From a virus: a stretch of DNA of 64,000 nucleotides. The notes beneath the pieces were generated by a model. The model did no database searches. It was not told the origin of the DNA and worked only from the letters and a program-made list of their open reading frames with translations. The stretch lies in IMG/VR virus record IMGVR_UViG_3300027759_000048; one strand, given 5' to 3'. Positions 57,513-64,000 of the stretch are shown in pieces. The translations under genes and the position numbers were made by a program. Every line of letters starts with the position of its first letter. Positions within the stretch are counted from its first letter, which is position 1.

Positions 57513-59297
57513 ATGAAGAAACATTTAGCATGGTTGGCATTCATTGCCGTTGCTATCTTTTTGGTAGCGACAATTTGGAGCGAACCGAATAAGAAAACAA
57601 CCAGTGAGATCGGATATAGTGATTTCATTGCACAGGTAGATGGTGATAAAATCCACGATGTTGTTATTAGTGGTAGTGAGATTGTAGGTCACTATAGAGA
57701 CAACAATAGAACATTCTCCACATATGTTGCTAGTCTTTCTACACTATTACCAAGACTAGAGCAACACAAAGTTAATGTAACGGTGAGACCTGAATCCGAA
57801 GGAAACTTCTGGGTCAATCTGTTTATCAATATCTTTCCCATCTTTCTATTCTTTGGCTTATGGATGTTTCTTACTCGTCGTGGTCCTGCTGGTGGCGGCG
57901 TTATGGGTATGGGTAAGTCAAAAGCAAAACTACTCACAGAAAGCAATACCAAGATAACCTTTGAAGATGTTGCTGGTGTAGACCATGCTAAAGACGATTT
58001 ACAGGAAGTTGTAGAGTTTCTACAAGACCCACATAAGTTTGAAAGACTTGGTGGTAAGATTCCAAAAGGCGTTCTACTCGTTGGTCCTCCAGGTACAGGT
58101 AAGACACTATTAGCAAGAGCCGTTGCTGGTGAAGCTGGTGTTCCTTTCTTTAGTATCTCTGGTTCAGACTTTGTTGAAATGTTTGTCGGCGTCGGTGCTT
58201 CCCGTGTCCGTGATATGTTTGAACAAGCAAAGAAGAATGCTCCTTGCATTATCTTTATTGATGAGATTGATGCTGTTGGTCGCTCCCGTGCCAATGGTAT
58301 CAGTGGCAACGATGAAAGAGATCAGACATTGAATGCTATGCTCGTTGAGATGGATGGCTTTGAAACAAACGAAGGTATCATCATTGTAGCAGCAACAAAC
58401 CGTGTTGATGTTCTCGATCAAGCATTGCTACGCCCAGGTCGTTTTGATAGACAGATCCAAGTTCCGAATCCTGACTTTGTTGGTCGTGAAAAGATTTTGA
58501 AAGTTCACACTCGCAAAGTTCCGATTGGTCCTGATGTTGATCTAAAGATTGTAGCAAAAGGAACACCTGGTTTCTCTGGTGCTGATCTTGCTAATCTTGT
58601 CAACGAAGCGGCTCTACTAGCGGCAAGACGATCAAAGCGTATTGTTACTAGAATGGAGTTTGAAGATGCCCGTGATAAGATCCTTATGGGTCCAGAGCGT
58701 AAGTCACTATTGATGACTGATGAAGAAAAGAGAATGACTGCCTATCACGAAGCTGGTCACGCTCTAGTATCACTCAATATGCCTGGCTCTATTCCTATTC
58801 ACAAGGCAACAATCATTCCTCGTGGACGTGCATTGGGTATGGTTCAATCTCTACCAGAACGTGATCAAATCTCACAGTCTTATGAAGAGATGATTGCCCA
58901 ACTAGCAATGGCTATGGGTGGACGAGTTGCTGAAGAGATTATCTTTGGTAATAAGAATGTAACCTCTGGTGCGTCTGGTGATATCCAGATGGCGACTAAA
59001 CTTGCAAGAGCAATGGTTACACAACTTGGGTTTTCTCCTATTCTTGGTAGAATGGCATACAGTGATCCTAGTGCTGATATGTGGCATTCACCTAAGATTG
59101 CTGAGGAAACACAAAAGATTGTTGATAAGGAAGTATTGCGTCTTGTAGAAGAAGGATACGATACCGCAAAGAAAATTATCATTAGAAAGAGAAAAGACCT
59201 TGACACACTAGCGAAAGGCCTGCTAGAATATGAAACTCTATCAGGTGAAGAAATCTCAGACTTGTTAGAAGGAAAGATACCAACTAGAGAGTTTTAA
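57513..59297 (+). CDS. ftsH: ATP-dependent zinc metalloprotease FtsH (full length)
   Basis: Two TM helices, [15 protein letters not shown] pore loop, [12 protein letters not shown]...[14 protein letters not shown]. Confidence 0.96.
59200..59229 (+). promoter_or_regulatory. Sigma70-like promoter within 3' end of ftsH, upstream of gp46
   Basis: TTGACA-N18-TAGAAT with TG extended -10. Confidence 0.55.
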
Positions 59298-61489: not shown

Positions 61490-61652
61490 TTCCAACAAAA
61501 ATCATTGCTACTCACAAGATTATAATAAGATGATCGCCTTCATACAAGAAGTTGGTAGTTTGAAACTGAAAAAAGACCGTAGCAATGAAATAGCTATAGT
61601 TCAAGAATACCTAGAGCAACGTGTCAAAGAAATCAAAGATAGGTGGAAATGA
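61476..61652 (+). CDS. Small hypothetical protein
   Basis: SD GGAG then ATG 61476; 58 aa. Confidence 0.55.
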   Translation: MAKTDSNKNHCYSQDYNKMIAFIQEVGSLKLKKDRSNEIAIVQEYLEQRVKEIKDRWK

Positions 61653-62449
61653 TAGATACTATATTAATGGACATTGTGAATGAACAATCAAAAGAACAAG
61701 ACGTAGCAGTATTACTATCAGGCGGCATTGACTCCATCTCTGTCGCCTTTGCTGCACATAGACTTGGCAAGACATTACATTGCTATACCATGTATGTTGA
61801 TGATGTCGTTTCTAAAGACGCACAGAACGCCATTGATACAGCAAAAGAGTTTAACTGGGATATCAATATCATTAATGTTCCTACTGTCAATATAGTGGGT
61901 GACTTTAAGCATTTGGTATCCCATTATAACTGTCAAAAGAAAACACAGCTAGAATGTACCTGGCCGTTTCTATATGTCTATCCCAATATCAAAGAGAAAG
62001 AACTACTGACAGGCTGGGGTGCTGATGGTTGGTATGGTGTATCTAAAAGAGCCTGCCTCCATTTCAAAGAGCCTAAAGAAAAGTTTGATGAGTTCCGCAA
62101 CGCATACTTTGCCGCTTCTAATCCAGTTGGTGTTAGACAGCAAGAGCAACTATGTGATGAACGTGGTATAAAGTTTATCGCTCCATACTTTGATGATCGT
62201 GTCCGAAATTATATGATGCAGTTTGATTGGTATGAGATGAACAGGCCATTCCAGAAAGTGAAAGTCGTCAGTGCCTTTCCTGAGTTCAAGAGAACAAAGG
62301 TAAGACGCCACGAGAACCTACAACTAGCAGCAAACATACCTAGTCAGTTTGAGAAACTGCTTGACAATCCCGAAATCAATCTCTATAATAGAAAACGAGT
62401 AATTGATCTTGTCCGTGATTGGCAAGACAAAGGAGAGTCGTTATTTTGA
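61649..62449 (+). CDS. Asparagine-synthetase-like ATP-dependent amide ligase (synthetase domain only)
   Basis: LLSGGIDS PP-loop, LTGWGADGWYG (cf. AsnB SGEGADE.FG), APYFD (cf. PFLD); no Ntn glutaminase domain. Confidence 0.8.
   Translation: MIDTILMDIVNEQSKEQDVAVLLSGGIDSISVAFAAHRLGKTLHCYTMYVDDVVSKDAQNAIDTAKEFNWDINIINVPTVNIVGDFKHLVSHYNCQKKTQLECTWPFLYVYPNIKEKELLTGWGADGWYGVSKRACLHFKEPKEKFDEFRNAYFAASNPVGVRQQEQLCDERGIKFIAPYFDDRVRNYMMQFDWYEMNRPFQKVKVVSAFPEFKRTKVRRHENLQLAANIPSQFEKLLDNPEINLYNRKRVIDLVRDWQDKGESLF
62361..62389 (+). promoter_or_regulatory. Perfect sigma70 promoter inside the amide ligase gene, driving MTase-cmoA
   Basis: TTGACA-N17-TATAAT. Confidence 0.75.
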
Positions 62450-63588
62450 AATACAAACCATATACTGTCAAAGATGTGAAGAAGGCTTCCGCTCAAAATA
62501 AGTTTTCCGTTATTAGTTGCTTCGCCGGTGGTGGTGGCAGTTCTACTGGCTATCGTCTTGCTGGTGGAAAGATATTATTGATTAATGAATTTGTGGAAGA
62601 AGCCATAGCGTCATATAAAAAGAACTATCCTGACACACCTGTTCTAGTTGATGATATCAAGAAATACGCCGGAAAAGACTTTTTAGACAAGGTTAAGCTA
62701 AAAGAAGGGGAGTTAGACATCCTCGACGGTTCCCCGCCATGCTCGGCTTTCTCTGTTGCGGGAAAACGGGAGAAAGGTTGGGACAAGACTAAGAGCTATT
62801 CTGACGGTAAGACGGTAGAGAATATCGAGGATTTATTCCTAGAGTTTATTCGTGTCGCTAATGAGATTAAGCCAAAGGTCATCGTGGCAGAGAATGTTAA
62901 AGGTATCACATTTGGTGAAGCAACTAAGAAGCTAAACGAGTTCATCAAAGCCTTTGAAGGTATTGGTTACTATGTCACATATAGAGTATTGAATGCTGCC
63001 GACTTTGGTGTTGCTCAAGGTAGAGAAAGAACAATCTTTATCTGTGTTCGTGAAGATGTAGCAGATGCCATCGGTTTATCGTTTCTCAATTTAGCAGGTA
63101 TCTTTCCAGATGAGTTTGGCTATCAGATATCAATGGAAGATGCTATTGACGATATCAAGAACGATCCAGAAGAAATCAAAGAGCTAAGAGACTTTTACGA
63201 AGGTTCGTTTCAGAAAAAGTTTCTTGACCCAATTCCTTTTAGACCAAAGCGGCATATGAAACCAAGTGACCCTGAGTTTCGTGAATGGAATCCCAAAGCA
63301 TCTTGCTTCAATATGATTAGACCTGCACCACATCTACCATGTCCAACATTAACACAGCAGGGACAGAAGAAAGGTTTGTCGGGTGTCTTTCATTATGCTG
63401 AGAACCGCAAGCTAACAATCAAAGAGCTAAAACGCCTTATGTCATTACCTGAAGATTATGAGTTGACAGGAACATTTGACCAGCAAGCAGAACGCATTGG
63501 TCGTATGGTTGCTCCAAAGATGATGGCAGAGGTTGCTAAGTCAATCTATGAGAATGTATTGAAACCATACAATGAGGTATCAAAATGA
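62446..63588 (+). CDS. C5 DNA cytosine methyltransferase homologue, predicted carboxymethyltransferase (motif X GRMV)
   Basis: FAGGGG (I), GSPPC (IV), ENV (VI), Q.RER (VIII), R.LT..E..R (IX), IGRMVAP (X). Probable TTG start at 62446 after AGGAG. Confidence 0.9.
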   Translation: MKYKPYTVKDVKKASAQNKFSVISCFAGGGGSSTGYRLAGGKILLINEFVEEAIASYKKNYPDTPVLVDDIKKYAGKDFLDKVKLKEGELDILDGSPPCSAFSVAGKREKGWDKTKSYSDGKTVENIEDLFLEFIRVANEIKPKVIVAENVKGITFGEATKKLNEFIKAFEGIGYYVTYRVLNAADFGVAQGRERTIFICVREDVADAIGLSFLNLAGIFPDEFGYQISMEDAIDDIKNDPEEIKELRDFYEGSFQKKFLDPIPFRPKRHMKPSDPEFREWNPKASCFNMIRPAPHLPCPTLTQQGQKKGLSGVFHYAENRKLTIKELKRLMSLPEDYELTGTFDQQAERIGRMVAPKMMAEVAKSIYENVLKPYNEVSK

Positions 63589-64000
63589 GTGATTATGATT
63601 TTACGTTTGCCCATCGTGACGAAGGCTTTGACAATCACATTGAAAAGTCCATTCGTGGTTATACACACCTACATGACGATGTTGTAAATTTGTCACGGTA
63701 TTATGTTGAAGATTGGACTAATGTAGTTGATATTGGATCATCAACTGGCAAGACGATTGAGGCAATGGCGATACAGAATGAAACTATTGCTCCTTCTGCC
63801 ACATACATTGGTGTAGAGGTTGCTACAGGCTTCAAGAATGATATGGAGAAACGCTTTACAGTTCTACGTGATAGATTTCCAGAAACATCTTTTGAGTTTG
63901 AGTTTTCCGATATTAGAAGCTATACCTTTTACAATTGTTCACTTGTAACATCTCTCTTTACTTTACAGTTCATGCCACCAAAAGACCGTGAAGAGGTTAT
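63585..64000 (+). CDS. cmoA: CmoA-like carboxy-SAM synthase (3' truncated; missing from ORF track)
   Basis: MSDYDFTF...FDNHIEKSIRGY...VVDIGSSTG...DIRSYTFYNCSLVTSLFTLQFMPPKDR aligns by eye with E. coli CmoA DWTF...F..MIQRSVPGY...VYDLGCSLG...DIR...NASMVVLNFTLQFL.P.ER; ATGA overlap. Confidence 0.85.
   Translation, partial: MSDYDFTFAHRDEGFDNHIEKSIRGYTHLHDDVVNLSRYYVEDWTNVVDIGSSTGKTIEAMAIQNETIAPSATYIGVEVATGFKNDMEKRFTVLRDRFPETSFEFEFSDIRSYTFYNCSLVTSLFTLQFMPPKDREEV

Follow-up and report, generated by a model that had tools for sequence, protein, structure and literature searches.

A predicted DNA cytosine C5-carboxymethyltransferase with a motif X arginine, encoded between predicted amide ligase and carboxy-SAM synthase genes of a T4-like phage

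The DNA analyzed here, referred to as the window, is a stretch of 64,000 nucleotides from the IMG/VR virus record IMGVR_UViG_3300027759_000048. The window is a segment of a T4-like myovirus and carries genes for portal, sheath and scaffold proteins, a UvsW-like helicase and gp46/gp47 on the + strand. A close match to it was not found among isolate phages. A membrane AAA protease that resembles FtsH is encoded at full length at 57513-59297 (phrog_30773, E 2.9e-220). Its gene is located between the genes of SbcD-like gp47 and SbcC-like gp46, which are usually adjacent to each other. At the end of the window three genes follow one another on the + strand, namely cmoY (61643..62449), cmoX (62446..63588) and cmoA (63585..64000). 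The stop codon of cmoY overlaps the start of cmoX as TTGA, and the stop codon of cmoX overlaps the ATG of cmoA as ATGA. By these overlaps the three genes are translationally coupled.

The cmoX gene encodes a predicted DNA cytosine C5-carboxymethyltransferase of 380 aa. Its ORF matched the profile of C-5 cytosine DNA methylases over the full length (PF00145; E 1.7e-53, profile 1-323 of 324) as well as TIGR00675 dcm (E 2.4e-45). The closest characterized relative is SpCmoX of Synechococcus phage S-B43, which has been crystallized with carboxy-SAM (Cx-SAM; PDB 8YF3; Yang et al., Nat Commun 2025, PMC12783734). With SpCmoX the window protein shared 52% identity over 377 residues (E 5e-134), and 8yf3_A was also the top match among solved structures (E 6.7e-113). 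The ORF begins at an in-frame TTG at 62419, which would yield 389 aa. We consider the TTG at 62446 to be the likely start and correct the ORF start to it, because of its TTGA overlap with the cmoY stop, the AAGGAG at 62430-62435 and an N-terminus (M-K-Y-K-P-Y) that matches SpCmoX. A consensus scan detected a candidate promoter (TTGACA-17-TATAAT; 62361..62389, + strand), which lies within the 3'-terminal part of cmoY and precedes the cmoX start by 57 nt. Its sequence is a perfect sigma-70 consensus (12/12) and could give cmoX and cmoA an early transcript of their own, with the total of promoter-like sites in the region being not above that of shuffled sequence.

Motif IV of the window enzyme (S-P-P-C; 62731..62742, + strand) contains the catalytic cysteine C99 and corresponds to S95-P96-P97-C98 of SpCmoX. 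Motif VI (E-N-V; 62890..62898, + strand) contains E149, equivalent to SpCmoX E156 and contacting the target cytosine. Both motifs were invariant in the A1 alignment, and the cytosine-binding Glu and Arg residues (E149, R193 and R195) were conserved. The Cx-SAM contacts F25, E47, F48 and D69 of SpCmoX correspond to F26, E48, F49 and D70, respectively, and all of them were kept. Taken together, all cofactor and catalytic residues named in PMC12783734, including SPPC and R350, are conserved in the window CmoX.

The upstream gene cmoY encodes an ATP-dependent amide ligase with a predicted function in the ligation of glycine to 5-carboxymethylcytosine (5cxmC). Residues 8-131 of its 268 residues matched PF00733 (E 1.8e-12), and an asparagine-synthetase-type PP-loop (SGGIDS) was present without a glutaminase domain. 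The identity with SpCmoY was 51% over 267 residues (E 3e-94), which places the window CmoY inside the SpCmoY sequence cluster, as the glycine-ligase cluster is defined at a level of about 30% (PMC12783734).

The downstream gene cmoA, predicted to encode a carboxy-SAM synthase, is cut off by the window end and is represented by its first 138 codons. This fragment was 54% identical to SpCmoA (E 3e-49), and its best NCBIfam match was TIGR00740 CmoA (1.9e-12), besides phrog_4752 (6e-29). The nearest relative, locus L002, carries an intact CmoA of 230 aa at the same position. The CmoA equivalog model has a trusted cut-off of 193 bits; the score was 47 bits for the 138-codon fragment and 114 bits for the L002 homologue at full length. 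SpCmoA, whose function is biochemically proven, diverges from bacterial CmoA to the same degree and shares 54-59% identity with the CmoA of the window and of L002.

An earlier note on this DNA, made from the letters alone, had reported that motif X of the methylase reads G-R-M-V where GN[AS]V is normally present. This reading is correct: positions 63499..63510 on the + strand are GGT CGT ATG GTT in the frame of ORF 62419..63588. The context of the arginine in this ORF, QQAERIGRMVAP, agrees with the earlier quotation. The arginine codon CGT (63502..63504, + strand) corresponds to R353 when counted from TTG 62446 and to R362 when counted from TTG 62419. The Gly-Asn of motif X, a feature of canonical SAM-dependent C5-methyltransferases, is absent in the window protein.

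In phmmer alignments the segment ERIGRMVAP of the window protein paired with IGNAVP of M.HaeIII and IGNAVPP of DNMT1. For a finer placement a C-terminal profile was used that consisted of the last 72 residues of 16 relatives, with the motif X arginine at profile position 45. In 8YF3 this position was occupied by R350 (3-66 vs 308-371), in M.HhaI by N304 (8-60 vs 267-319, segments of equal length). For M.MpeI (4DKJ) the full window protein aligned over residues 98-226 only, a range in which N374 is not covered, and the C-terminal part of 4DKJ was reached neither by the C-terminal 72 residues alone nor by the 16-sequence profile. M.HhaI N304 is the motif X asparagine that lines the cofactor pocket and is the counterpart of M.SssI N370 and Dnmt1 N1580 (PMC10666283). 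M.HhaI N304, M.SssI N370 and M.MpeI N374 have been treated as one motif X position (PMC10666283, PMC6009647), and the steric mutant of M.MpeI at these conserved positions is Q136A/N374A (PMC6009647). The window arginine can therefore be equated with the N374 position by way of M.HhaI N304 and this literature. From the sequence, Arg353 is predicted to be the residue that binds the carboxylate of carboxy-SAM.

The arginine, its role and its link to cmoA have already been published together with a crystal structure and biochemistry in December 2025 (PMC12783734). Wild-type SpCmoX accepts only Cx-SAM and not SAM, and its product is 5cxmC. The cofactor is provided by the phage CmoA, and in E. coli 5cxmC was formed only with cmoA present. 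R350 of SpCmoX stands in the place of M.HhaI N304 and touches the carboxymethyl group of carboxy-SAM. The adjacent CmoY, an asparagine-synthetase homologue, ligates glycine to 5cxmC, and the virion DNA of S-B43 carried 5gcxmC at about 75% of GC sites (all PMC12783734).

Judged by its sequence, the gene at 62446..63588 is very probably an orthologue of CmoX, a phage DNA cytosine C5-carboxymethyltransferase. As a 52%-identical orthologue it belongs to this known system and is not a new system. The window enzyme resembles SpCmoX in the C5-methyltransferase fold, the SPPC motif, the motif X arginine (R350 = R353) and the F/E/F/D contacts to Cx-SAM. In both cases the gene is clustered with cmoA and cmoY and belongs to a T4-like myovirus. 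The order of the genes is cmoY-cmoX-cmoA in the window, whereas it is cmoA-cmoY-cmoX in S-B43; the window order was common to 43 of 80 metagenomic relatives. In addition, an insert of 8 residues that follows motif IV in SpCmoX is absent from the window CmoX, which has an insert of 6 residues ahead of motif IX and is diverged from SpCmoX in the variable target-recognition region.

The earlier note had regarded the arginine as the natural counterpart of the engineered N374K substitution of M.MpeI. This is supported, since the arginine aligns with SpCmoX R350, which its authors likened to N374K themselves (PMC12783734). Lysine or arginine at the homologous residue turns M.MpeI and M.CviPI into carboxymethyltransferases (PMC12015181, PMC13288465). 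In M.MpeI N374K, M.MedI N377K and M.CviPI Y205K/R a cationic motif X side chain next to the transferred group allows carboxy-SAM to be used and 5cxmC to be formed, as is predicted for the window CmoX. These variants differ from it as man-made single mutants of SAM enzymes that keep their methylation and are without partner CmoA and CmoY. Furthermore, the best engineered variants carry lysine whereas the window CmoX carries arginine, and M.MpeI and M.MedI are CpG-specific. A prediction of the note, that an R-to-N revertant would switch to SAM, does not hold for the homologue, in which the R350N mutant of SpCmoX showed activity with neither SAM nor Cx-SAM (PMC12783734). By analogy with this inactive mutant the arginine appears to be necessary and its pocket co-adapted, and reversion of the natural enzyme is apparently not simple.

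The engineered lysine variants retain methyltransferase activity (PMC12015181, PMC13288465), and about half of the residues differ between the window enzyme and SpCmoX. Both observations would fit a dual-cofactor enzyme which, like M.MpeI N374K and M.MedI N377K, uses SAM as well as carboxy-SAM and would leave DNA with both 5mC and 5cxmC derivatives. We regard such an enzyme as very unlikely here, since SpCmoX was reported to be Cx-SAM-only (PMC12783734) and all named cofactor contacts are kept in the window enzyme.

If the window gene is a CmoX orthologue, the following pathway can be proposed. The product of the downstream gene, CmoA, would form carboxy-SAM from SAM and prephenate. CmoX would flip out a cytosine, probably in GpC context, and Cys99 would attack its C6. 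The resulting C5 carbanion would take the carboxymethyl group from carboxy-SAM. Arg353, at the site of the ordinary motif X asparagine, would pair with the extra carboxylate of the cofactor and in this way lead to the use of carboxy-SAM. With ATP, the upstream gene product CmoY would then join the new carboxyl group to glycine or a similar amine. The phage DNA would in this way carry 5-glycyl-carboxymethylcytosine, which may shield it from restriction. For the window proteins the basis is sequence, alignment, conservation and gene linkage; chemistry, structure, GC motif and glycine ligation come from the 52%-identical homologue, and we infer their transfer. A GpC target of the window CmoX is likewise suggested by SpCmoX and by the GpC preference of the sister TET-linked methyltransferases. 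In its amine or its target motif, the end product of the window phage could differ from the 5gcxmC of S-B43.

In bacteria the carboxy-SAM made by CmoA is usually consumed by the tRNA carboxymethyltransferase CmoB. It is comparable to CmoX in that its cofactor is made by CmoA and an arginine has been proposed to recognize the carboxylate (cited in PMC12783734). It differs in belonging to another methyltransferase family, in its substrate ho5U34 of tRNA and in the transfer to oxygen and not to C5.

Co-variation of the arginine with a neighbouring cmoA, which the earlier note had suggested as a check, was analyzed in IMG/VR with flanks of 8 kb. The sample comprised 80 relatives of the window protein (62-88% identity), 86 relatives of two Asn-type phage methyltransferases (Thermus P74-26 and Cronobacter SemperBestia) and 80 Leu-type relatives of the methylase of Methylophilales phage Melnitz, which is 40% identical to the window protein. 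All 80 relatives of the window protein carried the arginine, with the motif GRMVAP in 78 and ARMVAP and GRMVCP in one each. CmoA was found at 75 and CmoY at 69 of these 80 loci, and a TET/JBP gene at none (0/80). The Asn-type relatives had asparagine (GN[AS]V) in 86 of 86 cases, and CmoA, CmoY and TET/JBP were each found in 0/86. Leucine (GLMVAP) was present in 80/80 of the Melnitz methylase relatives; here CmoA and CmoY were found in 0/80 and TET/JBP in 64/80. Hence, CmoA accompanied 75 of 80 Arg-type genes vs 0 of 166 non-Arg loci. The motif X arginine is not a chance substitution.

The arginine had also been put forward as support for the cmoA linkage and as a searchable diagnostic. The first holds with the adjacent cmoA of the window and with the counts among the Arg-type relatives. 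For the second, SPPC together with R350 has already been used in this way, giving 5,615 homologues with CmoA on the contigs of 4,257 (PMC12783734), and our IMG/VR counts agree. The published survey counted CmoA among Arg-type enzymes only; the Asn- and Leu-type relatives without CmoA add a negative control to the published diagnostic.

Five Arg-type loci (L044, L048, L049, L052 and L053) carried CmoY and CmoX, and no CmoA was found over the full length of these fragments, none of which is more than 33% complete. An Arg-type enzyme without a phage CmoA is also present in Moraxella phage Mcat8 (L083). Arg-type phages without CmoA may depend on the carboxy-SAM of their host. In the isolate-phage collection CmoA was present in 66 records, which overlap the C5-methyltransferase-bearing phages of Erwinia, Dickeya, Yersinia and Synechococcus. 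In Erwinia phage Yoloswag gp43 (L085:1492-3600) an intein-like insertion of about 320 residues was located exactly at the catalytic cysteine of motif IV (SPP|C...HN|C). An insertion in the Arg-type methylase is a feature of Erwinia jumbo phages, and the Yoloswag CmoA lies about 14 kb away.

That the window gene encodes an ordinary SAM-dependent 5-methylcytosine methyltransferase with the arginine as a tolerated neutral substitution can hardly be believed. In its favour, the site varies, with Leu, Met, Tyr, Asp and Lys represented in the best 150 sequences, M.CviPI has a natural tyrosine (PMC13288465) and M.HhaI N304A still methylates (PMC10666283). Against it, SpCmoX with the same arginine and pocket residues uses only Cx-SAM (PMC12783734), the arginine is invariant in the 80 relatives of the window protein, 75 of them have the Cx-SAM synthase gene next to the methylase as counted above, and a phage has no evident use for cmoA and an amide ligase beside a plain methylase.

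The evolution of the motif X site was analyzed for the carboxymethyltransferase and its relatives. In an IQ-TREE phylogeny of 48 sequences the Arg-type rows formed one side of a branch with an SH-aLRT of 80. The Arg and Leu types grouped together with an SH-aLRT of 96; the Met type branched outside this group, followed by the Asn type. Since the Arg-type rows lie on one side of a branch, the ratio of 75/80 vs 0/166 corresponds to approximately a single event and not to 246 independent observations. Many independent Arg-CmoA events within the main sample were rejected for the same reason.

The residue at this site was also counted in the best 150 representatives drawn from 1.84 billion proteins and was R in 106 of 143, N in 26, L in 5, K and D in 2 each and Y and M in 1 each. 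The statement of the earlier note that C5-methyltransferases normally have GN[AS]V is true for most of them. It does not apply to the GpC-related neighbourhood of the window enzyme, in which the site can also be Leu, Met, Tyr or Lys. M.CviPI has tyrosine at the motif X site (PMC13288465). In a FastTree phylogeny of the best representatives, R and N were interleaved and at least 8 changes were forced by well-supported branches of an otherwise weakly resolved tree. A second, distant lineage contained one long-flanked Arg-type locus (L272) with CmoA and a CmoY-like gene, and four Asn-type sisters without them. The weakly supported FastTree phylogeny and this one extra lineage give a hint of repeated switches to arginine.

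The Leu-type group (L082:4010-6194 of Methylophilales phage Melnitz-3 and loci L177-L256) comprises the closest non-Arg relatives of CmoX. A PF12851 TET/JBP-type dioxygenase adjoins the methylase in 64 of the 80 Leu-type loci. TET-associated GpC C5-methyltransferases such as that of Melnitz (Burke et al., PNAS 2021, PMC8256090) are phage enzymes too and, like CmoX, provide C5 with a handle for hypermodification. GpC is favoured by their published members (PMC8256090), as it is by SpCmoX. They differ from CmoX by leucine in motif X and by forming 5mC from SAM, which is then oxidized to 5hmC. TET is not mentioned in the CmoX paper (PMC12783734). By this comparison, one methyltransferase scaffold may be common to two routes of hypermodification.

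A further-reaching idea, which we put forward tentatively and consider rather doubtful, would be that evolution has used the motif X residue repeatedly as a switch on a single scaffold of GpC-reading phage methyltransferases. According to it, arginine with cmoA may lead to the carboxymethyl/amide route and leucine with TET/JBP to the route from 5mC via 5hmC to a glycan, while the Asn-type kin in bacterial mobile elements may carry out plain methylation. Natural lysine, the residue of N374K, was found in two representatives, namely P0026 (L257:3710-4801; IGKSVPP) and P0102 (L258:4639-5772; MGKMVAP). No CmoA, CmoY or TET was found on their short contigs (5.2 and 12 kb), one of which carries an integrase. 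Both could be natural enzymes of the N374K kind that draw on the carboxy-SAM of the host.

For the window itself, cmoY-cmoX-cmoA can confidently be assigned to the locus as a hypermodification module for 5cxmC / 5-glycyl-carboxymethylcytosine. That a single motif X arginine makes a carboxymethyltransferase, supplied by a phage CmoA, out of a DNA methyltransferase was established with SpCmoX (PMC12783734), and the earlier note had deduced this from the raw sequence. The practical value is modest: the window CmoX is a further divergent natural carboxymethyltransferase for 5cxmC-based sequencing methods.

Two other types of relatives were observed. A Met-type group with the motif GMSVPP (L084:2923-4050, L088:1453-2448 and L089:428-1480) has members in Flavobacterium phage tooticki, Rhodobacteraceae phage MD05 and Parabacteroides phage PD491P1; for phages of the genera of these members no CmoA was recorded. 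For Lys-type relatives and for Asn-type relatives with GNMV, no or very few viral contigs were found in the search, and the short contigs of the GNMV type had no CmoA, CmoY or TET. Each of these GNMV relatives (L262-L265; contigs of P0064 and P0060) has in front of it an ORF of about 325-335 aa that gave no Pfam match. The end of this ORF overlaps the start of the methylase, and its product is a possible conserved partner.
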